Source: a virus
Length of the DNA stretch: 64,000 nt
Virus record (IMG/VR): IMGVR_UViG_3300045988_112819
Strand: one strand, 5' to 3'
Below the pieces are notes generated by a model. The model was not told the origin of the DNA and did no database searches. It saw only the letters and a program-made list of their open reading frames with translations. The number at the start of each line of letters is the position of its first letter. Positions within the stretch are counted from its first letter, which is position 1. Shown in pieces: positions 6,592-36,916 of the stretch. The position numbers and the translations under genes are program-made.

Positions 6592-6619
6592 AAAGAGAGG
6601 CCAAAGCCTCTCTTTTCTT
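6584..6619. terminator. bidirectional terminator (agagaggc caaa gcctctct)
   Basis: 8-bp stem, A-run and T-run. Confidence 0.65.
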
Positions 6620-6869
6620 AATCCTCGTTTTCTAAATTGATTTCTCCTATACAGTTACACCGTATCGGAGATTCAAAAACAAATTCATCTCCATATCCAA
6701 CGATAGTTATTTCTCCATACTTTTTACAATACTCGTCTATCTTTTCGATTAGACTATTCCAATCTTTCTCTTGCGCTTTTTGTTTTCTAAGTGCCACTTC
6801 TTTATAGGCGGTAGCACTCAACCATTGCAACTCCTCATCATTCAGTTTGTCGAAATCAATATCAACCAT
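6618..6869 (-). CDS. hypothetical protein (83 aa)
   Basis: ORF track; AAAGGAG RBS. Confidence 0.65.
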   Translation of the reverse strand: MVDIDFDKLNDEELQWLSATAYKEVALRKQKAQEKDWNSLIEKIDEYCKKYGEITIVGYGDEFVFESPIRCNCIGEINLENED

Positions 6870-6886
6870 CTAAAAATCTCCTTTCT

Positions 6887-7339
6887 TTAATGAAAAATCT
6901 CAGCCGGAATTTCACTAAAAACTTGCTTAAATTGCTCCATAGTCAGTTCTCTTGCCGCTCTCTCAACCCTTTCTTTTGCCCAGTCGCAAACCATTTCGCA
7001 GGAAATAAATTTAATTTCATACCCAGTAATGGCGTAGATTTTAGGCGACCACTCAAATCTTTTTGTATCAGCCATATTTCCAGTTAAAATCATATATTCG
7101 CCGGTGGCTTGATTTTCTTCTGACTGTTCAACCCAACATTGAACTATATTTTCAACATAGTTTTTTCCAGTTTTAACCGCTTCTTTTTCGGTTCGAGCAT
7201 TGATTAAAAAGGTAGAAAGCATAATATCATCACGAAATGATACCGTAAATTTATAAGGCTTCTTAGAGAAGATGCCCTTGCGACCTTCACACCAAAAGGT
7301 AACTTGAAAATTAACACGAAATTGTTTTAAGCTTTCCAT
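6887..7339 (-). CDS. hypothetical protein (150 aa)
   Basis: ORF track; AGGAG RBS. Confidence 0.65.
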   Translation of the reverse strand: MESLKQFRVNFQVTFWCEGRKGIFSKKPYKFTVSFRDDIMLSTFLINARTEKEAVKTGKNYVENIVQCWVEQSEENQATGEYMILTGNMADTKRFEWSPKIYAITGYEIKFISCEMVCDWAKERVERAARELTMEQFKQVFSEIPAEIFH

Positions 7340-7344
7340 TTCTT

Positions 7345-7485
7345 TTATCTCCTGTAATAATCTTCAATATAAAATTTCATTTCTTTTTCTGTACTTTGTC
7401 CTAATACCGAATAAATAGTGGAAATGTCAAGGCAAGTTCTTTTAATTAAGAAACGAATGATAGAGTTTTTAAGTTTATTCATCAT
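7345..7485 (-). CDS. hypothetical small protein (46 aa)
   Basis: AGGGAGG RBS 7 nt upstream of ATG; below the ORF-track size cutoff. Confidence 0.4.
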   Translation of the reverse strand: MMNKLKNSIIRFLIKRTCLDISTIYSVLGQSTEKEMKFYIEDYYRR

Positions 7486-7511
7486 TTCTTTTACCTCCCT
7501 TCCATGGTTAA

Positions 7512-7540
7512 ATGATACCACATTTTCGGGAGAAAGTCAA
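7512..7540 (-). promoter_or_regulatory. sigma-A promoter TTGACT-17-TATCAT (second TTGACA at 7544-7549)
   Basis: consensus hexamers, exact 17-bp spacer. Confidence 0.6.
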
Positions 7541-7642
7541 GCTGTCAAGTTGCACAAATTTTCAATTCAAAATTGTTGAAAATGACAATAGAAGAAAAAT
7601 TCGGACCGCGGCGCACGCTGGCGGTCCGCTCAAAATTTTGCA

Positions 7643-7676
7643 TAAAAAAAATCTCCCCATAAGGGGAGATTTTTCT
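7643..7676. terminator. intrinsic terminator (atctcccc ataa ggggagat) with A8 / T-run
   Basis: seen directly. Confidence 0.7.
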
Positions 7677-8039
7677 TTAGTTGAGAATTATTGGATATGC
7701 CTTGCGAATAACCACCGTAACCATGGCCGGGGGAGTGTCGCACAAGAAACGGTCATTTCTGATAAAACGACCAATTCCCATATTCTGCCACAAAGTCCGG
7801 TTTACATCCTCGTATCGTAGGGTATTATACTTGGAAAGTTTGATATACCAATCATAGATAAAGGAACCATCTTCCGGCATGGTGTAATCTGGAACCCGCT
7901 TATAATTTCTCGTATGTTCTGCGGCTCTGCGCTCAAGATCATTTGTCGTGCCAATCTTGAGAATATAGCGCCCCTTTTTGTCGATATAATGTCCGACATA
8001 TAGAAACTCTTTTCCCCTTGTCTGTAAACTAACTATAAC
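7677..8039 (-). pseudogene. GIY-YIG nuclease gene without an in-frame start (VGHYIDKKGRYILKIGTTNDLERRAAEH...); the ATG and RBS at 7999 are in the -1 frame, so probably a 1-nt indel at the tcgg(g)aca run or a programmed shift
   Basis: clear GIY-YIG motif in a frame open 8039-7677; ORF track splits it into two overlapping ORFs. Confidence 0.5.
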
Positions 8040-8083
8040 TTACCTCTTTTCTGGTAGGGCCGGGGTAGGCCGACCCTACCACG

Positions 8084-8497
8084 TTATTTCTTCGGTTTAC
8101 GCTTTTGCACAAGCGTCAACTCGAAACTATCCCCACCAATAGAAAACGCAATCTGTCTTTCCTTGTTAGTAATAGACAAGTCAGCGATAGAGAATTGACT
8201 GTTTTTTTCCAAAAACTCTGCCAATTCCGCGATTATACCGCCTTTCGTGGCGTTTGGCTTGCGTTGCCGGGGCGTAAACTTATATGCCGTTGGAGCCTTT
8301 CTCGTCCCCGCATGGGCAAACTTTTGGGCAATTTTTGCCTTATCTGGCGGTAAATCGTATTCAGTCTTTTTATCAGCCTCTACCGCTTTATCATAGGCCA
8401 ATAACTCCGCCTCCTGTTCCGGCGTTAATTGTAGGGCTTTATACCTTGCAATCCGTTCAGCGTCACTAATGCGACTGGATATAATATCACCCCCCAT
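8084..8497 (-). CDS. hypothetical basic protein (about 137 aa; alternative GTG start at 8524 inside the hairpin)
   Basis: ORF track. Confidence 0.55.
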   Translation of the reverse strand: MGGDIISSRISDAERIARYKALQLTPEQEAELLAYDKAVEADKKTEYDLPPDKAKIAQKFAHAGTRKAPTAYKFTPRQRKPNATKGGIIAELAEFLEKNSQFSIADLSITNKERQIAFSIGGDSFELTLVQKRKPKK

Positions 8498-8508
8498 ATT
8501 ATAAGTTA

Positions 8509-8531
8509 GGGCGGGGATTTTCACCCCGCCC
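8509..8531. repeat. hairpin GGGCGGGGATTTTCACCCCGCCC, copy 1 (identical copy at 11149-11173), directly upstream of a gene start
   Basis: exact repeat of a GC-rich stem-loop. Confidence 0.6.
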
Positions 8532-8540
8532 TATACGGGG

Positions 8541-8951
8541 TTACGCCATCTTAAAGAGGGACTTGCCCTTCTTCTCCGTGCAGACCACTCGACCATCGAG
8601 TTTCAACTGCCGCACAAGGGCGGCGACCTTCTGGTTAGAATAGGCCGTCAGATCAGGAATAGCCTTGAAAATTTCCGTGCAGGTTACGCCATCGGTATCG
8701 GCATCCAGACCAGCCAGATACTCCATAATCTGCTCCTTAAAATTCTCGTTCTCCTGCTGGGTGGGAGTCAGCTTCTTGTCACCGCTAGAGCTATTCTTCT
8801 TACGCAGAAGCTCCAGCTCATGGTCAATGACAGTAATAGCCACCTCGATGGTAGTGCCATACTTTACCTCGCCGTCAGTCAAGAGGGCCTTAATGTCCTC
8901 AAAACGCTGGGCCTTAGTAATGCGGATTTTCTTCTCGTCCATAATATACAT
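8541..8951 (-). CDS. hypothetical protein (136 aa; likely start MDEKK at 8942)
   Basis: ORF track. Confidence 0.6.
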   Translation of the reverse strand: MYIMDEKKIRITKAQRFEDIKALLTDGEVKYGTTIEVAITVIDHELELLRKKNSSSGDKKLTPTQQENENFKEQIMEYLAGLDADTDGVTCTEIFKAIPDLTAYSNQKVAALVRQLKLDGRVVCTEKKGKSLFKMA

Positions 8952-8990
8952 CCTTTCTGGTTTTTAGGACTGTCCTTGTCCTTTGATTAT

Positions 8991-9291
8991 ATTGTACCAC
9001 ACTATTTGGTACTTGTCAAGAGGTTTTTCAAACTTTTTTCAAGAACTTTTGCTCTTTACTTGTTTGCCCTCTCAACCTCCCTTATAGTGTAACACACTTT
9101 GGAAAGTTTGTCAAGCCCTTTTTATTTAATTTTCAAGGTGCATTGCCTTGTTTTCTGTACTTATTATAGCACATCTTCAAAGGCTTGTCAAGAGATTCTT
9201 GAAAGATTTTTGAGAAATTCGCTGTCGCTGTCTGCCGTTCGTCTCTCTCACTTTCTGAATGTATTTTACCACAAGCAAAAGCAGATTGCAA
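8991..9291 (-). promoter_or_regulatory. cluster of four tandem consensus sigma-A promoters (P1 8991-9019 TTGACA-17-TACAAT; P2 9086-9114 TTGACA-17-TACACT; P3 9163-9191 TTGACA-17-TATAAT; P4 9263-9291 TTGCAA-17-TAAAAT), each with a TGTGg extended -10
   Basis: four repeated about 30-bp promoter units 77-100 bp apart. Confidence 0.6.
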
Positions 9292-9432
9292 GCGTCAAAT
9301 TGCACAAAAATCGGAATTTTGGGAGAAAGTTTTTGTGCAGAATTTTACACAAAACGGGGTTGAAATTTTTGTGCAACATTTACAAAGAAAAACTCGGGTC
9401 GCGCCGCTCCTGCGCGACCCGCTCAATTTTGT

Positions 9433-9464
9433 ATAAAAAAAAGAGGGGTAAAACCCCTCTTTTA
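9433..9464. terminator. intrinsic terminator (agagggg taaaa cccctct) with A-run / T-run
   Basis: seen directly. Confidence 0.7.
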
Positions 9465-9476
9465 GTCGGAAACGTC

Positions 9477-9626
9477 TTAAATAGCGTTCCCGATTTTGAA
9501 GCACTTGGCCGAAGGCGACCAAAGAGAACCGGCCTTGCGCTTAGCATCAGAACGGGCACGGTCAACATCCTTGCCGACACCCACAAACACATGGCCTGCC
9601 GCAGTCTTAAAATAGAAATTCATCAT
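9477..9626 (-). CDS. hypothetical small protein (49 aa)
   Basis: AAAGGGAG RBS; own promoter and terminator; below ORF-track cutoff. Confidence 0.45.
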   Translation of the reverse strand: MMNFYFKTAAGHVFVGVGKDVDRARSDAKRKAGSLWSPSAKCFKIGNAI

Positions 9627-9674
9627 AACAAAACTCCCTTTCTTTTATGAGGGTTATTCCCTCTTGATGATTAA

Positions 9675-9703
9675 ATTATACCACAATTCGGTGAAGCTGT
9701 CAA
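9675..9703 (-). promoter_or_regulatory. sigma-A promoter TTGACA-17-TATAAT
   Basis: consensus. Confidence 0.6.
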
Positions 9704-9746
9704 GGTTTTTTACATACTTTTCAGATATTTTTTATGGAGCGGGGCG

Positions 9747-10571
9747 TTAAGCCCCGACTCGAATAGTAGGTACATTCCGCATACTTGCGGAAAGCTGACG
9801 CTGAAAGTCTGTCATAGGAGGAAATTCCTTCCTATTCTCATACAGGGCCTTTCTCATGGGCTTATGTTGGCGCATACAGTACCACATGATTTCCGCCTCA
9901 ATGAGAACATCTTCAAGCCCCGTATGACTTTCCTCAAAATCGGTATTTCCAGAGATAAACCGCCACACGATTTCCGCAGTCTTACGGGGAACGCCATTGG
10001 CTTGGATATATCCATTTTCCTGACAGAATTTCTTATAAGTGGGCATATTGCAGATAACATCTTGTGTCATCTTCATAATATCCCAAATTTCCACACTGTC
10101 AAACGGGAACCAGTAGCGAAACTTAGAGCAAGTGACCCATCGTTGAGTGACCCGCAGAGCGTTATCGTCAAACCGGGCATTATAAGCAGCCACTTCCTTA
10201 ATTCCGTATCGCTCGATAGTATCAAGCATAGCCTGACGGATTTCATAAGTAGTAGCCATCTTGCGAGTGCCGGCCCGCAATTCCTCAACATAGCGGGGGA
10301 TTTTCCAATTATAATAGGCCGTCCGCATTAAGTCTCGCTCGTCATTGAAAATGTCCCGATTTACAAAACTTGCAGTTTCGTAAATATTGCCCTTGGTATC
10401 TACTACAGCCCAACCGCAGTCATATACCAGTACATTTGACATATCCATGCGGACACGCTCAGGAGTAATAATCTCCCCATCCTCTCCGATTTCAGCGGGA
10501 ACGGTTTCGGTTAGTGTGTTGGCGGTTTCAGTGTCAACCACCAGCACATAATGTCTGCGCTTATCAATCAT
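9747..10571 (-). CDS. DEDDh-family (DnaQ-like) 3'-5' exonuclease (274 aa)
   Basis: Exo I VVDTET, Exo II AYNARFDDNAL, Exo III HTGLEDVLIEAEI. Confidence 0.65.
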   Translation of the reverse strand: MIDKRRHYVLVVDTETANTLTETVPAEIGEDGEIITPERVRMDMSNVLVYDCGWAVVDTKGNIYETASFVNRDIFNDERDLMRTAYYNWKIPRYVEELRAGTRKMATTYEIRQAMLDTIERYGIKEVAAYNARFDDNALRVTQRWVTCSKFRYWFPFDSVEIWDIMKMTQDVICNMPTYKKFCQENGYIQANGVPRKTAEIVWRFISGNTDFEESHTGLEDVLIEAEIMWYCMRQHKPMRKALYENRKEFPPMTDFQRQLSASMRNVPTIRVGA

Positions 10572-10605
10572 AATCTATCAAGTCCTTTCTTCTCTTGATG
10601 GTATT

Positions 10606-10634
10606 ATTATAGCACATTTAAGGCTTGGTGTCAA
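10606..10634 (-). promoter_or_regulatory. sigma-A promoter TTGACA-17-TATAAT
   Basis: consensus; second promoter TTGCAA-17-TATTAT at 10766-10794. Confidence 0.55.
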
Positions 10635-10893
10635 GAGGAAAAGGAAAGTTTTTTTGGCTTAATCCTTTCAGTAGCTAATTGAAATTTAGCCGTATACTTT
10701 GCTTCCTTTACTTTCTAAGAGTTCGCGACCTCTTGATTTCTTGGCCTCTCCCTCCTGACATGATAATAATACCATACTTTTGGGAGAATTGCAAGATGGC
10801 AAATTGCACAACTTTTCGCCGCCAAAATTGTGCAACATCTACAAAGAAAAAAATTCGGCCCGCACCGCCCAAGCGCGGGCCGCCCAAACGACA

Positions 10894-10934
10894 ATAAAAA
10901 AATACCCCTCTCAATAATGAGAGGGGTATTTTTA
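10894..10934. terminator. intrinsic terminator (atacccctctc aataat gagaggggtat)
   Basis: 11-bp stem, A-run / T-run. Confidence 0.7.
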
Positions 10935-11126
10935 ATATCCAATATATTCCCTATTGATTAGTTCATCTATCCCATATACCAGATCATCAAGAGAGACAGG
11001 AAAATCATCATCAATTTCATTCTCTTCCATGCTCCGGCTAATCTGGCTTATGAGAATTGAAGCATTTCTCAATGTTTGTTTTTCCGTTGAATCAAAAATG
11101 AGCCTATTAACTTTCTTAATTTGCAT
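10932..11126 (-). CDS. hypothetical small acidic protein (64 aa; start MQIKK)
   Basis: AAAGGGAG RBS; ORF track extends to an upstream ATG inside the hairpin. Confidence 0.5.
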   Translation of the reverse strand: MQIKKVNRLIFDSTEKQTLRNASILISQISRSMEENEIDDDFPVSLDDLVYGIDELINREYIGY

Positions 11127-11148
11127 TGACAAAACTCCCTTTCTTTGT

Positions 11149-11173
11149 GGGGCGGGGATTTTCACCCCGCCCC
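11149..11173. repeat. hairpin GGGGCGGGGATTTTCACCCCGCCCC, copy 2
   Basis: identical to 8509-8531. Confidence 0.6.
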
Positions 11174-11177
11174 CCAT

Positions 11178-11639
11178 TCAGTCCAAATTGTTGATATATT
11201 CGATTATGTCTGTCTCTCCTGGATTTATTGTATCTCCTAAATGCCAACCGTACCTAATTTTATCATTATCATCAAAAAGGATAAACGGCGGTTCATAGAA
11301 ACTACGGAATACACATTTGGCTTTGGTCGTTCCGTATGCCACACAATGACATTTATGGGCCGGAAATTTATACCTTGCAAGCCATTCCTTTTTTGCGGCT
11401 GTGACTGCTTTCTTATATTCGGGAGTGCTTTCAGGTGGTAGCCATGTAATTACTCTAATTTCCCATCCGTTATTGATTGCCTTTAGAAGCGCATTTCGGA
11501 GGGCTTCCATGTCCCACATAGGGGCCGCGTCTCGGAATGGGGTAGGGTCTCCATTGCGGAGTTTTTCGAGCCAATTAGGGACTGCATACAAGTCCGCGAT
11601 AGTTCCATCCATGTCAAAGCAGAGCATTTTTTTAGTCAT
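11178..11639 (-). CDS. HAD-superfamily hydrolase, likely 5'(3')-deoxyribonucleotidase-like (153 aa)
   Basis: motif I FDMDGTIADL; AGGAG RBS; promoter TTGACA-17-TATAAT at 11664-11692. Confidence 0.5.
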   Translation of the reverse strand: MTKKMLCFDMDGTIADLYAVPNWLEKLRNGDPTPFRDAAPMWDMEALRNALLKAINNGWEIRVITWLPPESTPEYKKAVTAAKKEWLARYKFPAHKCHCVAYGTTKAKCVFRSFYEPPFILFDDNDKIRYGWHLGDTINPGETDIIEYINNLD

Positions 11640-11645
11640 TGTATA

Positions 11646-11894
11646 TCAATCTCCTTTTGTTTTATTATACCATTTATTGCACACCTTGTCAACAAGTTTT
11701 TCAAAAAAAGTTTTACGCCGATATACCTTATAAGGCATTGACATATAATCTATATAGATCAGAGGGTCTTGTAAAAGCACAGTTCGTATATAAATCTCAT
11801 AATTAACCGGGGTAGTAGTATGCCCGAATTGTCTACGATAAATTTCAGCCACGGTTAAGTATTCATTGGGCTGAATAAACTTTGAAGGTTTCAT
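11646..11894 (-). CDS. hypothetical protein (82 aa)
   Basis: ORF track; AAAGGAGGGG RBS; promoter TTGCAA-17-TATTAT at 11922-11950. Confidence 0.55.
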   Translation of the reverse strand: MKPSKFIQPNEYLTVAEIYRRQFGHTTTPVNYEIYIRTVLLQDPLIYIDYMSMPYKVYRRKTFFEKLVDKVCNKWYNKTKGD

Positions 11895-12052
11895 TTAGTA
11901 CCCCTCCTTTTTTCTGTACTAATAATACCATAATTTAAGGATAATTGCAAGATGGCGAATTGCACAAGATTTCAAGACAAAAATTGTGTAGAACTTACAA
12001 ATAAGAAAACTCGGCGCGCCGCGTGCGTCAGCGCGCCGTCGAATTTTTAGTG

Positions 12053-12084
12053 TATAAAAAAGAAGGGCCGAAGCCCTTCTTTTA
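12053..12084. terminator. intrinsic terminator (agaagggc cgaa gcccttct)
   Basis: seen directly. Confidence 0.65.
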
Positions 12085-12540
12085 TCTTTCAGCCATATTT
12101 GAAAAATACCTTGCGACTAATTTAACCATTTCGTGAATAGATTCATCATTGTGCAGATTTTTGTAACAAATGAATCCAATTTGTCCCCCATCAGAAAAAA
12201 TGGGAGTAATAAACATAGATTTCCACGCTGTCGCAGGTTGGCTGATATTACTCCATTCATCTGGTGGTATAGAAATTTTGAAAGAACTAGGCCCGCTTAA
12301 AAGTTTATCTGAATCGAAGATCGCCGCGGAAATGTGATTAACAGAAAGGGCATTTCGCATTTCGTGGGCATGGTCAACGAAAAAAGATAGTGGAGAATAT
12401 TTCTTGAAGGCTATACAGTCGCCATCAAGAAAAATTTCCATAGGGTCGCCTTCTCTAATTCGCATACTCCTACGAATTTCTCTAGGAATAACAATACGCC
12501 CTAGGTCATCAATATGTCGAACAATACCAACAGCTCTCAT
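12082..12540 (-). CDS. SpoVT-like regulator: AbrB/SpoVT swapped-hairpin N-domain plus GAF-like C-domain (152 aa)
   Basis: GIVRHIDDLGRIVIPREIRRSMRIREGDPMEIF matches the AbrB/SpoVT N-domain. Confidence 0.65.
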   Translation of the reverse strand: MRAVGIVRHIDDLGRIVIPREIRRSMRIREGDPMEIFLDGDCIAFKKYSPLSFFVDHAHEMRNALSVNHISAAIFDSDKLLSGPSSFKISIPPDEWSNISQPATAWKSMFITPIFSDGGQIGFICYKNLHNDESIHEMVKLVARYFSNMAER

Positions 12541-12548
12541 TTTTTTAT

Positions 12549-12584
12549 CGCGGGAGCATAGAATACAAGTCCTATACTCCCGCG
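12549..12584 (-). promoter_or_regulatory. 36-nt hairpin (cgcgggag...ctcccgcg) between the GGAGG Shine-Dalgarno and the ATG of the SpoVT-like gene
   Basis: 8-bp GC stem; SD-to-ATG spacing is 44 nt unless folded. Confidence 0.45.
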
Positions 12585-12594
12585 CCTCCTTTCC

Positions 12595-12993
12595 TTAAAG
12601 CGATTTCCGCAGTTCGTCCAGCAGAGTAGACAGAGTTTTCATGTCGCCGCCCATTTCCAGCTTGACGCAGATCAGACTTGCATTTTCCTCTACCCACTTT
12701 GTCACAGTGGACAGCTCTTCATCCATCGTTTGGTTGATGGGGTTGTAAAGACTGCACATATTTGACTTGGCACACTCCTGGTCATAATAGCGGCGGAGCT
12801 TATATCCCTTCGCTGTGGCGCGCTCAATAATCCTTGTATTCAGCGCCTCAATCTCTTTTCGGCCTTCCTCGATGAAATCCTCAAACTCTTTCATAGCGTC
12901 CGCATACTTGGCTCTGATTTCCTCTCGCTTGGCGTTCGCAATCTTGTTGACCTCATCATTGATATAGGCTTCAATCCTCTTAGTAACACGCAT
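12595..12993 (-). CDS. hypothetical coiled-coil protein (132 aa)
   Basis: ORF track; promoter TTGACA-17-TACAAT at 13054-13082. Confidence 0.6.
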   Translation of the reverse strand: MRVTKRIEAYINDEVNKIANAKREEIRAKYADAMKEFEDFIEEGRKEIEALNTRIIERATAKGYKLRRYYDQECAKSNMCSLYNPINQTMDEELSTVTKWVEENASLICVKLEMGGDMKTLSTLLDELRKSL

Positions 12994-13090
12994 TTCTAAA
13001 ACTCCCTTTCTTATTTTAATTTATTTTTGGGGGGCTGCCCCTTCCATAGTCTTATTGTACCACAGAAGGGGCAGTTTGTCAACCCCTTTT

Positions 13091-13321
13091 TTACAAGGAA
13101 AGTAAATCCATCATAGTCATTTCATCAACTGTCTTATCGGCTTCCTCATCGAAAATACCCTTGATAATATCGGCCGCGTCATCGGGAGTACACATGCCGA
13201 TCCGCAGGAATTTTCCAAAAGACTGGAGCATTGCCTGTGCTGCTTCTCCTGGGCAGAACTCCTCCATGGTCTTATGCAGAAGAATAATCCCCTGTCTATC
13301 CTGCTCAGTCATTCTATACAT
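13091..13321 (-). CDS. hypothetical acidic protein (76 aa)
   Basis: ORF track; promoter TTGACA-17-TATAAT at 13373-13401. Confidence 0.55.
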   Translation of the reverse strand: MYRMTEQDRQGIILLHKTMEEFCPGEAAQAMLQSFGKFLRIGMCTPDDAADIIKGIFDEEADKTVDEMTMMDLLSL

Positions 13322-13405
13322 AGCAATATTTCCTTTCTGGTTTAATGAGTTTTCCTTCTCTTTACATTATTGATTATACCACTGTTTAAGCGGTTTGTCA
13401 ACCCT

Positions 13406-13558
13406 TTACATCAAATTTTTTGCCAAATATGCGAACATTAGAATTTCTGCGGCAAACATGATTTCAAGCCGAATACAGCTCTTTTGAGCAGCCGCCATTA
13501 ACTGCCATGCAAGGCAGGCCACAAACGCAATCAAAACAATCATTGTGAAGGTAGTCAT
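13406..13558 (-). CDS. small membrane protein (50 aa)
   Basis: AAAGGAG RBS 8 nt from ATG; one hydrophobic helix. Confidence 0.4.
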   Translation of the reverse strand: MTTFTMIVLIAFVACLAWQLMAAAQKSCIRLEIMFAAEILMFAYLAKNLM

Positions 13559-13587
13559 ATATATACTCCTTTTCTGGTTAAGAGGGT

Positions 13588-13821
13588 TTATACCCTCTTA
13601 ACCTCGATAATCTCCATATCGAAATCTTCCCAATATGCGCCCATGAGAAGGTCATGCCGCAAGTCCCCTTCATTCTCATAGTCCATATCTTCCAGAATTT
13701 GGCTCCACTCGCTTTCGGAATACTGGGCCTTGAGCCAGTCCCATCCCGCATGGCGTGCGCCAGTTTCAGTATCAGAAACGCCGATAATCTTTTCTCTACT
13801 GTCAGCCATTACCAGATACAT
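13588..13821 (-). CDS. hypothetical acidic protein (77 aa)
   Basis: ORF track; promoter TTGACT-17-TATACT at 13875-13903. Confidence 0.55.
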   Translation of the reverse strand: MYLVMADSREKIIGVSDTETGARHAGWDWLKAQYSESEWSQILEDMDYENEGDLRHDLLMGAYWEDFDMEIIEVKRV

Positions 13822-14021
13822 AACTCATTCTCCTTTTGTTTCGAGGGCTTTTGTTCTCCCCTCTTGATGATACAAGTATAACAGATAACAGATAGAAAGT
13901 CAAGCGATTTTGGGAAAAAATCTTCCATCAGATTGCACAACAATTCGAGCCTAAAATTGTGCAAATTGCCTCTTGATAAAAAATTCCGGCCGCGCCTGTG
14001 GTGCACGGCCGGGCGAACGAA

Positions 14022-14053
14022 TAAAAAAAGAACCTCCTGAATTTCAGGAGGTC
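14022..14053. terminator. intrinsic terminator (acctcctga att tcaggaggt)
   Basis: 9-bp stem after an A-run. Confidence 0.6.
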
Positions 14054-14094
14054 ATTAATTTCTGCATACCAACAACTCCCTTTCTTTTGAGAAG

Positions 14095-14328: not shown

Positions 14329-14394
14329 TTTGATAAATAAATTCTAGTGACCTAGGCTCGTGCGAAAAACGACTCCATCACGGGAATCGCCGAT

Positions 14395-14532: not shown

Positions 14533-14580
14533 TAGAAAAACTCCTTTCTTTATTTTTCTATAATTATTATAATATATTTT

Positions 14581-15515: not shown

Positions 15516-15519
15516 TCCT

Positions 15520-28616: not shown

Positions 28617-29669
28617 ATGTTAGATAAAGCTAATTTACTTAGTTTAATGAAAACTGTCGCTAATGCAAATCCTTCTGGTACCTATAGCTATCAAGGAGAG
28701 TCTTTTAGCTATGACGCTTTAAATACTACTTTGCGTAATGAGCTAAATGAATTTGTTGGCACAGATGAACTTTATAGAGAAAATAAAAATATTCTATTCT
28801 CTTTAATTGAGCAGACTATGGACGAAGTTGTTCCTAATCGTTTACTCAATTCTTATGGCAATTTTGCTGAGATTAGAACTTTCGCACAAGGCGACAAGCC
28901 TGTATTTACTCGTAGAACTGGACTTACTCGCGCTAAGCAATTCATTACTCGTGTGGGGCTTGCTGGTGTGTATGAGACCTTTAAGCTTGGTTCTGAGAGC
29001 TTCGAAGTTGGAACAAGCGCCATTGGTGGAGCTGCTCGTATCGGATTTGAGGAGTTCCTTGATGGAAGAGTAAACTTTGCAGAACTTACTCAAATTGTAA
29101 CAGAGGGTATGCAAGAGCTTATTTATAGAGAGATTGCTCAAGCTCTTATGGGTTCTATCAATCAGCTTCCCGCGGCAAACCGTTGTGCTGTTGCTGGTTT
29201 TGACGAACCAACTATGGATTATCTTGTAAATACTGCTACTGCTTATGGTCAGCCAACTATTTATTGCACTCGTGAGTTTGCAGTAAAAATGATTCCAGAT
29301 AATGATGCTTGGATTTCTGACAACATGAGAGATCAGTATTGGGGAACTGGTTATCTTGCAAATTACAAGGGAACTAGAGTGGTAATTCTACCTCAAACTC
29401 TTGAGGATGAGACTAACTCCAAAAAGATGATCGATCCAGGTTATGCTTGGATTATTCCTGGTGGAGCTGAGAGCCGTCCTGTAAAAGTTGCTTTTGAAGG
29501 TACTACCCACGTGCGCGAACGCAATGATAATGACGACTGGTCTCGTGATATTCAGGTTTACCGTAAGGTTGGTGTCGGTGTAATGATGGCGAATAACATC
29601 TTCTCTTATGTTGATACTGAACTTCAAGGCGAGCTTGATAATACTAACCCAAATCCAAATAATGGTTAA
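28617..29669 (+). CDS. major capsid protein (350 aa), TAG-free
   Basis: ORF track; size and position; GGAAGGAG RBS; followed by an attenuating terminator. Confidence 0.6.
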   Translation: MLDKANLLSLMKTVANANPSGTYSYQGESFSYDALNTTLRNELNEFVGTDELYRENKNILFSLIEQTMDEVVPNRLLNSYGNFAEIRTFAQGDKPVFTRRTGLTRAKQFITRVGLAGVYETFKLGSESFEVGTSAIGGAARIGFEEFLDGRVNFAELTQIVTEGMQELIYREIAQALMGSINQLPAANRCAVAGFDEPTMDYLVNTATAYGQPTIYCTREFAVKMIPDNDAWISDNMRDQYWGTGYLANYKGTRVVILPQTLEDETNSKKMIDPGYAWIIPGGAESRPVKVAFEGTTHVRERNDNDDWSRDIQVYRKVGVGVMMANNIFSYVDTELQGELDNTNPNPNNG

Positions 29670-29675
29670 TTGACA

Positions 29676-29710
29676 GGGGATAGGGAAATATCCCTATCCC
29701 CTTTTATTTA
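29676..29710 (+). terminator. intrinsic terminator (ggggataggga aata tccctatcccc) plus T-run
   Basis: 11-bp stem after the capsid gene. Confidence 0.65.
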
Positions 29711-29733: not shown

Positions 29734-30267
29734 ATGAAAAATAGTTGCACTGTTTATAATAAGAGCGCAGGTCGTGTTGTATATAGATTGCCTGAATTGG
29801 GCGTGCGCCGTATGTTTTACCCTGGAGAACATAAGGAACTTGAAGTATCTGAACTAGAAAAGCTAGTACAAACACCTGGAGGCCGCAAATTAATTTATAA
29901 TTACTTGCTTGTGGATGATAGAGAGATTGTTGAATATCTTATTAATGGTAGGGTTGAACCAGAGTATTGGATGAAAGAAGAAGAGATTGATTCTTGGATG
30001 AATACGTGTTCTTTAGATGAATTTAAGGATGCTCTTGATTTTGCTCCAGAAGGCACTAAAGATCTGATTAAATCCCATGCTATTTCTCTTCCCTTAAATG
30101 ATATGTCTAAAAGAGACGCTTTGGAAAAACAATTAGGATTTAATGTTACTAAAGCATTAGAATTAACAGCAGATGATAAAAAGAATCCTAAGGAAGAGAA
30201 ACCTGTAAGAAGAGTGTCAACTACAAGTGAGGATGCTCCAAAACGCAGAGTAGCTATTTCTGATTGA
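29734..30267 (+). CDS. hypothetical structural protein (177 aa), TAG-free
   Basis: ORF track. Confidence 0.55.
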   Translation: MKNSCTVYNKSAGRVVYRLPELGVRRMFYPGEHKELEVSELEKLVQTPGGRKLIYNYLLVDDREIVEYLINGRVEPEYWMKEEEIDSWMNTCSLDEFKDALDFAPEGTKDLIKSHAISLPLNDMSKRDALEKQLGFNVTKALELTADDKKNPKEEKPVRRVSTTSEDAPKRRVAISD

Positions 30268-30286
30268 CATAAGGGAGGTTATAGCC

Positions 30287-30829
30287 ATGGATAATAAGAA
30301 ATATCCAATTTAGGGCGATCCGACCCCCTTTGAAGAAATTTATGATAGATTTTTTGGTAAAATTACTGATGATATGTATATGGAATGGACATAGGAAGAT
30401 ACCGAAAAAGATTTATATAATATCTTAATGGATGCTCTTCCTGGTTTTGAATTCCCTCGTTTTCCATTATACAGTTTTACCAATATAGAAAACAATGATG
30501 AAGAGACTGGAATAGCAACTATTATTCCAGCCTTTTCTGCACATTTAACGACAGAAGAAATAAATATTCTTGCTATTCTAATGTATAATACTTGGTTACA
30601 ACGCCAGGTGGCTTCAATAGAATAGACGAGAATGAAATATTCTGGAACAGATTTTAAAATGACTTCCTAGGCCAATCATTTAGCCAAATTAATAGAGTTG
30701 AAAAAGGAAGCAGAACGTCAAAGTCATCATATGCAGCGTCTCTATAAAAGAAGAAAACTAATTGATGATCAAGGCTCTTATAAATCAAACTGGTCAACAT
30801 TAAGAGAGACGAGTGTTTTTGATGGATAA
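30287..30829 (+). CDS. head-tail connector-region protein (180 aa), 5 TAG
   Basis: AAGGGAGG RBS. Confidence 0.5.
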
Positions 30830-31130
30830 ATATGATATTAATTTCCCATTAGAAACAAAAGAGTAGGATTTAAAGAGATTGATTAATTAGTTATGGAAGT
30901 TAATTCCAATGAGAGAGAATAATGAAGACTGGGTAAACCATTTGAATGTAATAACAGAAGAAATTAGTGGATTAGTTAAAATGTATAAAGATAGAGTTGA
31001 GGGACTTATTTTATTGTCTAAACTGGAAGGGTTATCTTCAAATGTCTGTAATGATTTTATGATTTATCGAAAAACAGTCTTTAGATGTATTGATTTGTTG
31101 GCGTAGGTGATTAGAGATGATGAATCTTGA
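30822..31130 (+). CDS. hypothetical protein (102 aa), 3 TAG, start overlapping the upstream stop
   Basis: frame continuous with ORF-track 30909. Confidence 0.45.
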
Positions 31131-31134
31131 ATTA

Positions 31135-32109
31135 ATGCGAAAAAGATTTGAATGGTAGGGTGGTATTCACTAGGAAGATAGAATGATCAAAGATAAATGG
31201 AGAACTCTTTAGAAAGCATTATTATATTCTTATCAAGCCTGTACCGTTCAATTAGTCTAGAAGTCAACCTAGGTTTTAGATGCAACGTTAGATGCTGTTG
31301 ATCCAGATATGAATATTTATCCTATGTGTCGTGCGCTTATTAATCCAGATAAAGTGAAACAGGACTATGATGATAAGATAATCTCCATAGATCATATTAA
31401 TCAATATGGGCCTGGAGATGTCTTTGAGTGGAAAAAAACTGGCACTCACTGGATAATTTATCTTGAAGAAATAACTGAGGACGCTTATTTTAGAGGGGAA
31501 ATAAGACGTTGTAGATATAGAATTAAGTTTAAAGATTAGGAAGGGAATTGGTGTTAGACTTGGGCTGCGATTCGAGGTCCAGTTGAAACCCAAATCGAGT
31601 CTATTTAGAAGAATCAAGAAAGATTGGATAAACCTAATCTTAGCTTAAACATACTTATGCCAAGAAATGAGAAAACTATTCATGCTTTTGATAGATATAG
31701 CGAATTTTTGTTCGCTGGAAGATGTTGGAAAGTTTAGGCTCCAGATGATATAAGTATGAAGAATGTAATTGAAGTTAGTGCAGAAGAAGATTATATAAAT
31801 AGAGACACTGATGATATAGAAAATAGTATGAAAGATGGTTTAATATTCGAACCAGAAGATCCTACTCCAAATAGCGGGATTATGGGAGAGACTTTTATTA
31901 AACCAATGATAGAAGAATCTTATTCTGTAGAAGAAGCTAATGGAGCTTGGTCAATATTAGAAAAGAATGTTCCTGTAACTTTATGTCCAAATGGAAATAA
32001 ATCTGTTTAGTTGGTGTGGAATAAAACTACTCATGGTCAATTCACTCTAGTATGGAAGAAGGATAATACTGTACTGGAAAAAGTTATTGTAGTAGAATCT
32101 TTATTTTAA
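31135..32109 (+). CDS. hypothetical structural protein (324 aa), about 10 TAG
   Basis: joins ORF-track 31309 and 31756 in one frame. Confidence 0.5.
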
Positions 32110-32124
32110 GGAGAGTGAATTGAA

Positions 32125-32661
32125 ATGAAAAAAAATACTTATGAGTATCCTAAATCTAGTTTGTTAGGTATGTAGAAAGATGCTTCTCTGATTATGGAAA
32201 GAATACTTTCTAATTAGAATGTTTTGAAATTATTAACTTATAATACTAGAGATTGGAAAAGTAAACCGACCGTTACAGGAGATATGATAAAGGAAATGAT
32301 TGATACTAAGTAGATTTCTGCTGTTCCTAAGATAAAGGTTGATAGACCAGAAAAATCTTATTTAAGATTGATCTATGGCACTATGGTTAGAAATTCTACA
32401 AATCCTGAATATAGAGATAATACATTTGGTATTGATATTATTTGTCATTATGATAATTGGGATTTGGGAGATTATGATTTACGACCTTATCGAATTGCGG
32501 GAGAGATAGATTCAATGCTTGATGGAACTCATTTAACGGGTATAGGAGAGCTAGAATTTGTATCAGCTACGCCATATATATATGATGAAGAATTTGCTGG
32601 TTTGTCTCTAACATATCTTGCTATTCGCGGAAATGAAGATAAGGTAAATCCACTTGCTTGA
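32125..32661 (+). CDS. hypothetical structural protein (178 aa), 3 TAG
   Basis: AAGGAG RBS. Confidence 0.55.
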
Positions 32662-32677
32662 TTATAGACTAGCTTTA

Positions 32678-33403
32678 ATGGCCGGGATTGATATTCCCAT
32701 TCCTGAATTACAACTTACTATTCACGTTCCCGTCATTAAAGAGATAGCTCTTATGGGAGAGACAAAATTTTTTATGGCAGTTCAATATTTATGTTTAGAT
32801 AAAGAATCATTAATATAGGACGAAACTCTTTTATCATCATTAACTAATTTTCAAGTATTGATGAAGGTGTTAGAATAGTCACAGGATAAAGATAAAAAAA
32901 ATGCTGTTATTATGCTACTTACATTATTATTTCCTGATTATATACCAGTAATAACTAGAAATTCAATAATTTTAACTAAGCAAGGAGAAAATTAGCCTTT
33001 GTTAATAGATGATAATAACTTTGATATTTTTCAAAGCGTACTAAAAGAGATTTTGTGTGTAAACAGTCTATTTTAGGGAAATAATGTTATCTATAATCCA
33101 GCTAATGACCGAGCTAAAGAAATTGCTGAAAAGTTAATGCGCGGTAGACGAAAAGTAGCAGAAATCAAAAGCAAAGGAAATAATGAGAGTGTTCTAACAC
33201 GCTATATATCTATCTTGACAATCGGATCTAATACAATGAGTTTAGAGGATTGCTTAAATCTAAATATGTTTTAGATATTTGATTTGATGGAAAGATATAA
33301 TGCGTTTATTGAATGGGATGTTGACTTGCGGGTTCGTCTTGCGGGCGGCAAACCAGATAAACCAGTTGAATCATGGATGCGAGATATACATCCTAAAAAT
33401 TAA
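32678..33403 (+). CDS. hypothetical protein (241 aa), 6 TAG
   Basis: continuous frame; TAA stop before a strong RBS. Confidence 0.45.
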
Positions 33404-33417: not shown

Positions 33418-34809
33418 ATGCGTTTTGGTATTCGTGAGATTTGCGATGTAGTACTTCGTGCCAAAAGCTATCAGACTTTAGGTAATCGTAAGTTCTATAA
33501 AAATGAACCAGTTTTGTACTTTGACACTTTAAGAACCTCTACTCTTGAAGGTGCTGCAACAACTGTATACGCACAGGGCGGACGTGGATATACTAGATTG
33601 ATTGCTTGGGAAGGTGAGCGTACTCTAACATTTACAATGGAAGATGCTTTACTTTCTCCAGAGAGCTTCTCTATTCTTTCTGGTGCAGGTCTGCTTGATG
33701 CAACAAAAGAAGCTCCAATTTACGTTCATCAAACTTCTCAGGTAGAAGTTGAAACAGCTAACACTATCGTGATTCCTGATAAAGCTTGCTGGAATGGATT
33801 TGCAGATCATGAAAATGAAATGTATCATCGTTCTGCTGACATTTTTGTAATGGTATTAGGAGATGATGGTCAAGTTAATGCTGAACCATGCATTCCTGTT
33901 TCTGTTTCTTATACAGAGGACGGAAAATCAACTTTAACTTGCTATTCTCATGCGGGAGTGCTCCCATCTGGTACTATCGTTTTAGTTGACTATTATGTAA
34001 AGCGCACTGGTGGCGCCCAGATGATTGAGATTACCGCTGATAAGTTTGGTGGAAACTATTATCTTGAAGCTTCTACTCTATTCCGCCGTGAGAGCGATGG
34101 CGTAGATATGCCTGCTGAATTTATTATTCCTAACTGTAAGGTTCAGAGTAACTTCACATTCAGCATGGCTGCTAACGGTGATCCATCTACCTTTACATTC
34201 ACAATGGACGCTTTCCCAGACTACACTAAGTTTGATCAAACTCATAAAGTTCTTGCCGCTATTCAGGTAATTACTGATGAAACTGGGGAAACCGAAGGAT
34301 CTCGTGAGCCATGCTCTGAGAATGTTGGTACTTATGAGAGTGAAGCTGCTGATGTAACTGTAAATTTTGTTTCTAACAGTGCCACAGAGGCGGAACTTGA
34401 TGTAACTGGTACTGTAACAGGAAAGGCTTATGATACTGAGACTTATGGAGATACAATTCCAGAAGCCGCACAAATTAGCCTCCAAATTCCAGTAGAGAGC
34501 GATAGTACCAAGTATACTGTAGTAATAACTAATCCAGCATATGAGAAATACTTCTCTACTGATGACTGTATTGAGGGCAATACAAAGACTCAAACCGTAG
34601 ATGGCGCAGAATTGGCAGATGGCCTATTAGTAATTCTTACTAAGGAGAGTAATACAACTCCTATTACAGCTAAGATTACTAAGATTAACGGAGACTTTGA
34701 GAAGAGTTATACTATTAATAACAAGCTCAGTTTTGCAGAAAGCACAAGCACTTATTCTGGCGCAAAAATGCGCAATAAGTTAGTCTCTGTTAGCGATGAC
34801 ACCATTTAA
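33418..34809 (+). CDS. major tail protein (463 aa), TAG-free
   Basis: ORF track; AAGGAGG RBS; strong terminator after it; lies before the chaperone and tape-measure genes. Confidence 0.55.
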   Translation: MRFGIREICDVVLRAKSYQTLGNRKFYKNEPVLYFDTLRTSTLEGAATTVYAQGGRGYTRLIAWEGERTLTFTMEDALLSPESFSILSGAGLLDATKEAPIYVHQTSQVEVETANTIVIPDKACWNGFADHENEMYHRSADIFVMVLGDDGQVNAEPCIPVSVSYTEDGKSTLTCYSHAGVLPSGTIVLVDYYVKRTGGAQMIEITADKFGGNYYLEASTLFRRESDGVDMPAEFIIPNCKVQSNFTFSMAANGDPSTFTFTMDAFPDYTKFDQTHKVLAAIQVITDETGETEGSREPCSENVGTYESEAADVTVNFVSNSATEAELDVTGTVTGKAYDTETYGDTIPEAAQISLQIPVESDSTKYTVVITNPAYEKYFSTDDCIEGNTKTQTVDGAELADGLLVILTKESNTTPITAKITKINGDFEKSYTINNKLSFAESTSTYSGAKMRNKLVSVSDDTI

Positions 34810-34814
34810 TTTTA

Positions 34815-34850
34815 AGGGAGGACTTAATAAAGTCCTCCCTTTTTCTTTTT
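34815..34850 (+). terminator. intrinsic terminator (agggaggact taataa agtcctccct) plus T10
   Basis: seen directly. Confidence 0.7.
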
Positions 34851-34868
34851 ATAAGGAGATATAGGAGT

Positions 34869-36311
34869 ATGGATGTTAATATTTATGATTATGTATAGCG
34901 TTGGTCTTTAAATTATATTGTTTATCATAGTAGTCATTTAAGAGAATATGGAGATGTAGAGTCCGCAAATATTCTCTTTAGTGGATAGTATCAAGAGGCA
35001 ATGAGTAAAATGAAGACTGCGGGAATTGAGACTTAGATTGCATCAATTCAAGAATAGATGCAATCTAAGGGTCCAGTTGCCGCGAGCGGATTGAGAGTTT
35101 TAAGTGATTTATAGATTGGTACCTTATTGGATTCTACTCTTGATTAGATCGCGGCAGGTATTAATGAAGGAATTGAATTAGCCGGTGGATAGGTAAATTT
35201 TGAAAATTATAATACTATATTACAATAGGCTGGCAATTTTAATAATTTGTTGGCTAATGGGACACCTGATATAAAAAGAGTTAATGATTTTTTTAGATTA
35301 TTGATATAGGCTCTTATGAAAGCCAATATGATAAATGTCAGTGTTCTTGATGCTTTAACCTAGATAGGAAGATCGCTAGTTGGTACTAGTTTTTAGATAG
35401 ATAATTCTTAGCAGCACTATGTTATGTCCATTGAAGATGGGGATATCAATGTAGCGAAAGAAGTAATAGATTCGTTGAGTAGAGCGGTTTCAAGATTAAA
35501 TGAAGGTGGAAGTGTAAACTCTAGATCTTTTGCTAATACAATATCATATATTTTTAGAAAAGTTATTGGAAATTAGATTAGTCAAGCTATAGTCGCAGAA
35601 GGTATATCTATTGGAATTAATACTGCGGATAGTATATTAGATACTGCTATTAAGTAGTCTGGTGGAAAATTAAAGTGGGTTGATAGAGGATAGAATACTA
35701 CTTCTGACAATGGAAGTAGAGGTGCTGTTAAAGTTTTTAATAATGATGTTTTTAATTTGTCAGTAACTAAGGGTAATCAAGTATTTAATATAGAAATTAG
35801 TGCTAATGTTAATGCAAAGTGGTAGAATAAAAAGAAATCTGCAAATAGAATTTAGGTTTTTTCAAATATAAATGTAGGGGATTATTTTTCTGGTTAGCCA
35901 GAAAAATATCTTGCTTATAATATGATTGCTCATAGATTCACTGGATCAGATTTTGAAGAATCTTTTAATAATATTCGTGCATCGGTAGCCGCCTCATTTT
36001 TTAATGAATGGGTTTCTTCTGGCGGTCTAGCTTCTTCTAAAGGACATCTTGGTCAGTTACTTATTGTTAATGGTAAAGTTTTTTCTATTTAGCGTATTAT
36101 AAATAATATTTGTGATGACATAGTTCGCAATAGCGGTCATGAAATAGTTTCTATTGGGGGAGAAAATTCTACTGGTAATAAGTGGTATGGAAATACTGGT
36201 CCAAATGTATTAGACGCTTTAACTCGTAGTAATATAGTTAATGAAGTCATAAGTAAATTAACAATTTCTGCTACATTAAACAATAATATATTGTCTAAAT
36301 ACGCATATTAA
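34869..36311 (+). CDS. hypothetical tail-region protein (480 aa) with about 24 in-frame TAG (about 5% of codons)
   Basis: AAGGAG RBS; the densest TAG usage in the window. Confidence 0.45.
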
Positions 36312-36315
36312 AAAC

Positions 36316-36344
36316 TTGACAATAGTTAATTTTTCTAGTATAAT
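36316..36344 (+). promoter_or_regulatory. internal consensus promoter TTGACA-17-TATAAT ahead of the chaperone and tape-measure genes
   Basis: perfect hexamers. Confidence 0.6.
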
Positions 36345-36376
36345 AAAAATATAAATGAGATAAAGGAGTTTTTACA

Positions 36377-36916
36377 ATGAGTGAAATTACTTTTAAAGAT
36401 TTGGGTTTGGAGCCTAAAATTAAATATACAGAAGTAAAAATTGGAGAAGATAAGATTTTATCTGTGGTTAATTATCTTCCGATTGCAGATAAAACAAATC
36501 TTATTACTTTTGTCGCAGATTTAGCGATAGATGAGATGACTGGGTGTTTTAGTCCGGTAAGAGTAGAAACTTATTTTGCTATTGCTATTTGCAGATGGTA
36601 TGGTGGAATTGTTTTTGAGCAAGAAGATGTGCATGAAAATATTGCCAAAACTTATGATACACTAGAGACTAATGGTGTTATTGATGCAATTAGAAGTGCT
36701 ATTCCAGTAGATGAATTGTCTTTTATTGAAGACTTAGTTAGAGATACTTTAAGCGATATAGCAAGATATAATAACTCTGCCGCAGGCATTATCCAAATGA
36801 TGAATAAAAATGCTTCTGGATTAGATACATATATTACTGATATAATGGAAAAAATTAAAAATGGTGAGAATCTTGAAACTTTATCAGTAATTAAAGATGT
36901 GGTTGGAAAAGATTAA
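36377..36916 (+). CDS. tail assembly chaperone-like protein (179 aa), TAG-free
   Basis: ORF track; sits immediately upstream of the tape measure. Confidence 0.45.
   Translation: MSEITFKDLGLEPKIKYTEVKIGEDKILSVVNYLPIADKTNLITFVADLAIDEMTGCFSPVRVETYFAIAICRWYGGIVFEQEDVHENIAKTYDTLETNGVIDAIRSAIPVDELSFIEDLVRDTLSDIARYNNSAAGIIQMMNKNASGLDTYITDIMEKIKNGENLETLSVIKDVVGKD

Follow-up and report, generated by a model that had tools for sequence, protein, structure and literature searches.

Why some genes of a phage in which the stop codon TAG is decoded as an amino acid contain no TAG at all is the question raised by the virus record IMGVR_UViG_3300045988_112819 of IMG/VR, from which a stretch of 64 kb (here called the window; G+C content 35 %) was analysed. 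The initial annotation of this stretch had proposed that TAG use is partitioned, in that immediate-early genes on the minus strand and the most highly expressed structural genes avoid the codon. Counts of TAG per gene, based on an 81-gene list of the window and compared with the number expected from composition, revealed depletion in both places, and the TAG-free islands among the late genes are real. Twenty-one plus-strand late genes (20658-58981) contain 287 TAG in 11,150 codons (25.7 per 1000, or 2.6 %), with a minimum of two per gene, whereas five others, located at 27908-28597, 28617-29669 (major capsid protein), 29734-30267, 33418-34809 (probable tail tube protein) and 36377-36916, lack it throughout their 1,398 codons. 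At the per-codon rate of the late genes, the probability of finding no TAG in these five genes is 1.5e-16. It is 1.3e-12 when counted as none of 37 glutamine (Gln) codons, set against the 52 % share that TAG has of the Gln codons in the 21 TAG-using genes, and 2.9e-5 when set against the 10.5 TAG expected from position-specific base composition. Unnamed genes are referred to below by their first coordinate.

Among the leftward genes at 6618-19100, 34 of the 36 are TAG-free, and only 2 TAG were found in 3,171 codons for which composition predicts 47. The eight leftward genes left of position 6600 have 1 TAG in 1,135 codons, making 3 TAG in 4,306 codons for all 44. An earlier estimate that about 35 of some 40 small minus-strand genes are TAG-free was right as to a near-complete absence, though the recount gives 31 of 32 (6618-17730), and the numbers given before for the open reading frames (ORFs) at 34869..36311 (about 24 TAG) and upstream of folD at 20200-20538 (7 TAG) had to be corrected to 19 and 6. 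In the 41 leftward genes that are free of TAG, the first in-frame stop is never TAG either and, because the triplet is absent from them both as a sense codon and as a stop, they are read alike under either code. CAA plus CAG account for 2.35-2.74 % of the codons of the late genes and of those at 6618-19100, and for 1.85 % in the small class at the left end, while total Gln in the TAG-using late genes is 4.9 %. Hence, since the frequency of the two standard codons is unchanged in the late genes, the Gln encoded by TAG is extra and replaces nothing. The 21 late genes do not differ significantly from one another in TAG density (chi-square P = 0.08), and the genes neighbouring the TAG-free ones have densities of 0.8 % to 4.0 % of codons.

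TAG as a glutamine codon and the relatives of the phage

ORFs of at least 100 amino acids (aa) cover 42 % of the window under genetic code table 11. With read-through of TAG the coverage rises to 93 % and the longest ORF has 2,914 aa, and reading through TGA gave no comparable gain in the coverage of the window. The terminase, the portal protein and a sigma-factor-like gene give full-length family matches once TAG is translated as Gln. TAG was masked as X before the homologue search, so that the test for Gln was unbiased. Across nine lineage representatives, Gln stood opposite the TAG sites of the window in 250 of 498 well-aligned partners that did not themselves have TAG (50 %), which is a 14-fold enrichment, and no residue other than Gln was enriched more than 1.6-fold. 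TAG is a sense codon read as Gln in this phage.

The window represents about half of a 120-146 kb genome of a human-gut siphophage of the phAss-1 / SPbeta-like group, the host of which is probably a gut Firmicute. A search of IMG/VR recovered 53 related loci with capsid identities of 55-99 %, all of them TAG-recoded to a varying degree, and the phage is a new species-level member of a known recoded-phage type. Of the relatives described so far, the nearest is phAss-1 (OQ749652), a human-gut siphophage which, according to Babkin et al. (2023, PMC10607447), recodes TAG to Gln and has three genes for tRNA-Sup(CTA). The capsid protein shares 52 % amino acid identity with that of phAss-1 and 36 % with that of Enterococcus phage EF1, and against the phAss-1 / SPbeta-like group the tail tube protein shares 53 % over the matched part and the portal protein 37 %. 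When 10 kb of the structural region were compared by megablast to the GenBank phages, no match was found. As megablast shows no DNA similarity and the genes around the capsid gene are arranged differently, the phage is, on these sequence comparisons, a relative of phAss-1 that lies outside the proposed genus Phassvirus. The two share a human-gut siphophage genome of about 130-140 kb, a very long tape-measure gene and, going by contigs of the same species as the window, a large tRNA array that includes tRNA-Sup(CTA). They also share TAG in the terminase, portal and tail genes together with TAG-free orthologues of the capsid block and the tail tube gene, though the clade of the window is the richer in TAG (2.6 % of late codons compared to about 1 % in the phAss-1 genes compared). 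Which genes avoid TAG is not analysed in the phAss-1 paper (PMC10607447).

The TAG-free late genes

When orthologues were tabulated by locus, almost all of the 53 relatives had these five genes without TAG and their neighbours with it. The data set was then consolidated to one representative for each of ten lineages, phAss-1 among them, with capsid identities of 52-97 %. The five orthologues have no TAG in nine of the lineages and 3 TAG in one, while the other late genes have 5-25 per 1000 codons. The depletion is significant in each lineage (P = 2e-16 to 2e-3), over a range of TAG loads of 0.5-2.6 % of late codons.

Two other origins of such islands were considered. Recent acquisition of the TAG-free late genes from a phage using the standard code would be in keeping with their G+C content (0.36-0.40, but 0.31 for 36377), which is mostly above that of their neighbours (0.29-0.38, mostly 0.30-0.35). 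The G+C content at third codon positions is, however, alike in the two groups (0.17-0.28 and 0.18-0.29), so the excess arises from amino acid composition. In addition, the five genes form three islands in one syntenic module and are TAG-free down to 52 % capsid identity, with TAG-bearing neighbours throughout. Horizontal transfer is hardly tenable and was rejected because the islands recur across the family and match their neighbours at third positions. The second is that the absence of TAG is a by-product of constraint on the proteins or of a low Gln content. In its favour, there are only two Gln codons in 29734 and two in 36377, and the TAG-encoded Gln of the other late genes is extra Gln. 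Yet the terminase (84 % identity to the 79 % group), an HNH endonuclease and the portal protein are as conserved as the TAG-free genes or more so and carry 1.5-2.5 TAG per 100 codons, whereas 29734, 36377 and the tail tube gene are among the less conserved late genes. CAA plus CAG is not lower in the TAG-free five (2.65 %, compared to 2.35 % in other late genes), and the absence of TAG from their 37 Gln codons has the very low probability given above. Both forms of this explanation, constraint and low Gln content, were rejected on these grounds and have next to no likelihood.

The five genes also differ from the other late genes in their choice among standard codons. ATA makes up 6 % of their isoleucine codons (31 % in other late genes), CGT and CGC together 60 % of the arginine codons (22 %), GGT 43 % of the glycine codons (27 %), CTT 40 % of the leucine codons (22 %) and TCA 4 % of the serine codons (13 %), and the share of C-ending codons among the two-fold NNY codons is 0.243 compared to 0.131 (P = 1e-7). 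This contrast repeats in all ten lineages, and it is the usual pattern of highly expressed genes in low-GC Firmicutes. As under translational selection elsewhere, the presumed high-expression genes prefer CGT/CGC, GGT, GCT, ACT, CTT, ATT and C-ending two-fold codons and avoid ATA, AGA, TTA, TCA and GGG. Unlike ordinary codon selection, the avoided set here includes a reassigned stop, the misreading of which ends the protein rather than merely slowing its synthesis.

An unsupervised principal component analysis of relative codon usage, from which TAG was excluded, placed 30 % of the variance on the first component (PC1). The capsid gene (3.9), the tail tube gene (3.8) and 27908 (3.1) lie at its extreme, 29734 is at 1.3, and 36377 (-0.65) falls among the unbiased genes; the two TAG-poorest ordinary late genes are at 1.5 and 0.8. 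PC1 is correlated with TAG density (rho = -0.59, P = 0.002). The proposal that the highest-demand proteins avoid TAG is supported for three or four of the five genes by codon bias, hairpins and recurrence in ten lineages, and it does not extend to the unbiased 36377. Codon bias suggests that the capsid, tail tube and 27908 genes are the most expressed of the late genes, as do virion copy number and 3' hairpins for the capsid and tail tube genes.

The capsid gene (28617..29669, plus strand, as are all the late genes described here) has no TAG in 350 codons and the strongest codon bias of the late block; it belongs to phrog_4088 and by tblastn its product matches annotated major capsid proteins of Bacillus siphophages. 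A 12-bp terminator-like hairpin followed by a T-run lies right after it (29675..29702), and all relatives have this hairpin, its stem preserved by compensatory changes. Directly upstream is 27908 (27908..28597), encoding a TAG-free protein of 229 aa with strong codon bias, for which its position suggests a head decoration or accessory role. Downstream, 29734 (29734..30267; phrog_30998) encodes 177 aa and has a moderate codon bias.

The gene at 33418..34809 (phrog_2729) has no TAG in 463 codons and a strong codon bias. Other depositors have annotated its homologues, in Bacillus phages as major tail or tail tube protein and in the Lactococcus 949 group as structural protein, which makes a major tail (tube) protein the probable product. 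The C-terminal part is immunoglobulin (Ig)-like. In the AlphaFold model the predicted local distance difference test score (pLDDT) is below 50 in the conserved core and only the Ig-like parts are confident; a fold search with this protein returned generic Ig-like matches only, and a sequence search of the PDB found no match for the capsid protein or for a profile of the tail tube orthologues. A second 12-bp hairpin with a T-run lies right after this gene (34814..34841) and is kept in those lineages whose gene ends at the same point. The hairpins after the capsid and tail tube genes are the strongest terminator-like ones on the plus strand of the region. In the window the Ig-like C-terminal extension is fused in frame, giving the 463 aa, and in the lineages of 76-79 % identity (L009, L014, L024, L029) the gene ends at about 305-312 aa without a hairpin behind its stop; frameshifting or a separate ORF may provide the extension in these lineages.

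The remaining TAG-free gene, 36377 (36377..36916), encodes a helical protein of 179 aa immediately upstream of the tape-measure gene and shows no codon bias. It forms a unit of its own, preceded by a perfect TTGACA-17-TATAAT promoter (36316..36344) that is kept in all related lineages and closed by a 13-bp hairpin (36955..36986) kept in every lineage. Its predicted structure (pLDDT 82) had no match in the PDB, and in BFVD it resembled uncharacterised siphovirus proteins and, weakly, tail assembly chaperones (E ~0.08). Together with the position of the gene, this modelled resemblance makes the product possibly a tail assembly chaperone. A search of Pfam gave no match for any of the five TAG-free late proteins.

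The features of 36377 bear on the rival view that the five late genes are TAG-free not through high expression but because they must be translatable without the suppressor, being transcribed before the code switches or from host-type promoters. The conserved sigma-A-type promoter, the separate hairpin and the lack of codon bias in 36377 all fit this, and in the published model it is for this very reason that early genes are TAG-free. Yet 27908, the capsid gene and the tail tube gene begin only 13-19 nucleotides (nt) from the genes upstream with no strong promoter between, and are probably co-transcribed with TAG-bearing neighbours, and the strong codon bias of the three is not predicted by timing alone. 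We consider this unlikely as the explanation of the five genes, but 36377 may well be TAG-free for a different or additional reason.

The other late genes all use TAG. A sigma-A-type promoter, TTGACA-17-TATTAT with a TG (20605..20633), kept in all related lineages examined, precedes the gene for the sigma-factor-like protein (20634..21704; phrog_5767, E 1e-38), which has 11 in-frame TAG in the window and 2-11 in the orthologues of every lineage. Packaging and head genes follow at 21711..27894, namely those for a phrog_3314 protein (8 TAG), the large terminase (13), the HNH homing endonuclease (3), the portal (12) and a protein whose C-terminal half is a scaffold-like coiled-coil (5). The HNH gene (24633-24989, plus strand) lies between those for the large terminase and the portal, an insertion kept across the family. 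Five head-tail connector or completion genes with 3-10 TAG each occupy 30227..33403, and the 480-aa protein encoded at 34869..36311 has the highest TAG density of the late block (19 TAG, 4.0 %). The gene at 37022..45748 encodes 2,908 aa with 101 in-frame TAG and probably specifies the tape measure, as suggested by its size and location and by comparison with the phAss-1 group, in which tape-measure genes are long. The genes downstream of it (45800..58981; 2-28 TAG each) are by their position likely to be distal tail, baseplate and fibre genes; Pfam gave nothing informative for them.

Suppressor tRNA and the leftward genes

The initial annotation had supposed that the suppressor is delivered by the phage. 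There is no tRNA gene within the 64-kb window, but a tRNA of 76 nt with the anticodon CUA, found using a degenerate anticodon-loop and T-arm pattern and then an exact-sequence scan, is present in identical form in eight IMG/VR contigs, four of which are of the same species by capsid identity (97-99 %). One of these four (IMGVR_UViG_3300045988_080502) matches the window at 99.2 % identity along 21 kb of the structural region and at 95-99 % along most of the early region. To that extent the supposition is supported. This tRNA is clearly homologous to one of the suppressors of phAss-1 (Sup-CTA) and lies on the early-gene strand, where its immediate neighbour ORFs are TAG-free; in the same-species loci read, only one tRNA(CUA) was seen. 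That suppression begins only after infection is a feature of the published model, which we take over here by analogy.

A tRNA array on the early-gene strand starts about 6 kb beyond position 1 of the window, and the leftward genes at 189..3625, nearly all TAG-free (975-1838, 1841-2377, 2394-2585, 2589-3023, 3113-3619), point toward it. Stepping left from the end of the window reached an array of 13 tRNAs that did not include the suppressor. Over several loci (L058-L063, L065, L185, L186) the array comprises at least 17 tRNA genes, among them tRNA-Ile(UAU), which reads ATA, and tRNA-Ser(UGA); ATA and TCA are used by the ordinary late genes and avoided by the capsid and tail tube genes. In phAss-1, one of the three tRNA(CUA) genes (62445-62532) is 88 nt long, with a long variable arm as found in type II tRNAs, and may not be charged with Gln.

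These tRNAs are relevant to another rival view, namely that TAG is decoded ambiguously, for instance as Gln or glutamate (Glu) or by several suppressors, and that lattice proteins exclude it for the sake of uniformity, whatever the yield. The three different tRNA(CUA) genes of phAss-1, one with the long variable arm, speak for it, as does the rank of Glu as the second commonest partner at the TAG sites of the window. Many Firmicutes charge tRNA-Gln indirectly via Glu-tRNA-Gln, which counts on the same side. The enrichment of Glu at these sites is only 1.4-fold though, compared to 14-fold for Gln, the same-species loci read show one tRNA(CUA) only, and ambiguity leaves the parallel avoidance of ATA, AGA and TTA unexplained. 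Ambiguous decoding is in our view quite improbable.

The leftward block itself (6618..19521, minus strand) consists of about 36 small genes with stops TAA or TGA and a G+C content of 0.41-0.47. Though a consensus sigma-A promoter had been ascribed to each of them, only ten strong ones were found (8991..16936, minus strand) when at least 11 of 12 matches, a 17-nt spacer and a TG-extended -10 were required. These are of the form TTGACA-17-TATAAT with A-rich upstream sequence, their first hexamers lie at 9019, 9191, 9703, 10102, 10634, 11692, 13082, 13401, 15335 and 16936, and they serve short operons, with GC-rich intrinsic terminators separating the units. Between 8000 and 16000 the G+C content is 0.41-0.45, with single genes up to 0.53, compared to 0.30-0.35 in the rest of the window; the block uses GCC, GCG, CTG and CGG, which are nearly unused by the late genes, and its terminator stems are very GC-rich. 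These GC-rich codons may match host usage before the phage tRNAs are present.

Few leftward genes contain TAG. An AbrB/MazE-like small regulator (14095..14328, minus strand; sub-threshold MraZ / MazE_antitoxin, E ~1e-4) has one, a genuine in-frame codon inside the domain, and one is found in a Cys-rich ORF of 45 aa upstream of it (14395..14532, minus strand), which has a weaker promoter (14594-14566). FolD (19428-20252, minus strand; 4 TAG) and the 110-aa ORF upstream of it (20200-20538, minus strand), with its six, are leftward yet TAG-using. The initial annotation had taken the AbrB-like, Cys-rich and folD genes as putative middle genes. On the opposite strand, within the otherwise TAG-free leftward region, a 212-aa helix-turn-helix protein (3928-4566, plus strand; sub-threshold HTH_36) has 11 TAG (5 % of codons).

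The TAG-free leftward block also includes a PTH2-type peptidyl-tRNA hydrolase (17661-18098, minus strand; E 1e-22), an enzyme worth noting in a phage that relies on stop-codon suppression, and a microbial-type poly(ADP-ribose) glycohydrolase (PARG; 18083-18913, minus strand; E 1e-25). At the other end of the window is a diversity-generating retroelement (60124-63985, minus strand), consisting of genes for an RVT_1 reverse transcriptase (60124-61341) and a small basic protein (61781-62275) and of the target gene (62357-63985), whose product of 542 aa has Big_3 and DUF6273 domains. The template repeat (61648-61750) and the variable repeat (62371-62473), the latter in the part of the target gene that encodes the C-terminal end, are 103 nt long and 83 % identical, and in the aligned core every mismatch is at an adenine of the template copy.

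A proposed three-tier account of TAG use

We favour, with a probability of roughly 0.65, an account in which TAG use has three tiers set by where TAG is not tolerated, the codon-optimised TAG-free late genes forming the third, and in which TAG would be decoded as Gln by a tRNA(CUA) of the phage itself. The first would be the leftward early or host-takeover genes, which are transcribed from host sigma-A promoters and must be readable while release factor 1 (RF1) is present and the suppressor is absent; the suppressor gene itself would belong here, on the early strand amid TAG-free genes. In the second tier, with the suppressor present, TAG would be a nearly neutral Gln codon that has drifted to a uniform 2.6 % in an AT-rich genome. 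In the third, selection for translation efficiency and against truncated subunits would purge TAG from the capsid, tail tube and 27908 genes, and less so from 29734, along with other poorly served codons (ATA, AGA, TTA, TCA). Gene 36377, as a separate unit with a conserved host-type promoter, may be expressed without waiting for the suppressor. The sigma-like gene would be transcribed early by the host polymerase and its protein completed only once the suppressor is present. Because it combines a host-type promoter with TAG in every lineage, it would link the build-up of the suppressor to late transcription, and its product is plausibly, as judged from sequence, a timer between the two. Timing, expression levels and the cost per TAG in this scheme are inferred.

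A number of observations weigh against the three-tier account or narrow it. Within the 21 TAG-using late genes, PC1 and TAG density are not significantly correlated (rho = -0.37, P = 0.12), and 36377 lacks the shared codon bias. Gene order, promoters, homology and codon bias are the grounds on which genes are called early, late or most highly expressed, and 27908, 29734 and 36377 belong only to PHROG families that have no annotation. The suppressor was seen in same-species relatives, outside the window, and genes further upstream on its strand contain TAG, such that it does not lie in a purely TAG-free operon. The efficiency of suppression is also at issue. For a tape-measure protein with 101 TAG, read-through values of 0.99, 0.98 and 0.95 per codon translate into computed yields of 0.36, 0.13 and 0.006, and its gene therefore implies near-complete suppression, with a per-codon read-through of about 0.98-0.99 or higher if a usable amount is to be made. 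The base following TAG (+4) is unbiased (P = 0.45) and gives no independent sign of competition by RF1. With no context bias and a uniform density, the cost per TAG codon must be small and would be selected against only at very high expression, though it could be raised by truncated subunits if these poison assembly. The idea in the initial annotation that suppression is inefficient survives only as a small per-codon cost at most; the 101 TAG, the unbiased +4 base and the homogeneous density all argue against strong inefficiency.

The same numbers allow a different reading, in which TAG keeps a real per-codon cost after the code has switched, so that its distribution reports expression and the number of TAG in a gene acts as a translational attenuator setting the ratios of virion proteins. 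At a read-through of 0.95 per codon the tape-measure protein would be made at about 1/180 of the yield of the tail tube protein, which by our own estimate comes near the ratio of copy numbers that is commonly taken for the tails of siphophages. We regard this as doubtful. If it were true, recoding would be shaped by where TAG is forbidden rather than by the gating of lysis, with the TAG-laden sigma-like factor as the timer.

An account by Ivanova from 2014 is reportedly also to be counted among those of stop-codon-recoded phages. That such phages combine a block compatible with the standard code with recoded structural and lysis genes is established (Devoto 2019, PMC6784885; Yutin 2021, PMC7886860; Borges 2021/22, bioRxiv 10.1101/2021.08.26.457843; Peters 2022, PMC9523058), also for the group of phAss-1 (Babkin 2023, PMC10607447), and the switching of the code late in infection by the phage's own suppressor is a published model (bioRxiv 10.1101/2021.08.26.457843, PMC9523058). 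Phages in which late-gene codon use matches their own tRNA arrays are cited in Borges et al. (bioRxiv 10.1101/2021.08.26.457843). The present phage resembles the published ones in reading TAG as Gln, in having a low G+C content and TAA as the preferred stop, in a concentration of in-frame TAG in structural genes together with its absence from another gene block and, going by its same-species contigs, in a phage tRNA(CUA). It differs in that the published phages use the recoded codon in their structural genes as a class, whereas in the family of the window the capsid and tail tube genes, which have the strongest codon bias, are exempt. Indeed, Yutin et al. (PMC7886860) took in-frame stops in the genes for capsid, terminase and portal as diagnostic of recoding. 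In a non-exhaustive search of partly consulted papers on recoded phages, no statement of a capsid or tail tube exemption or of a link to codon bias was found. The link between high expression and avoidance of TAG is an incremental addition to the known split between early and late genes. One practical consequence is that gene callers and code-prediction tools which judge recoding by capsid-type markers would miss or misjudge phages of this kind.

Why phages reassign stop codons is debated, the choice being between the gating of late and lysis genes and mutation pressure once a suppressor exists. This family is a clean natural experiment on the question, with TAG uniform over 21 late genes and at zero in the early and the most codon-biased genes. 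The pattern points to a neutral spread of TAG that is limited by purifying selection, and it raises a number that can be tested, namely the cost of one UAG in the infected cell.

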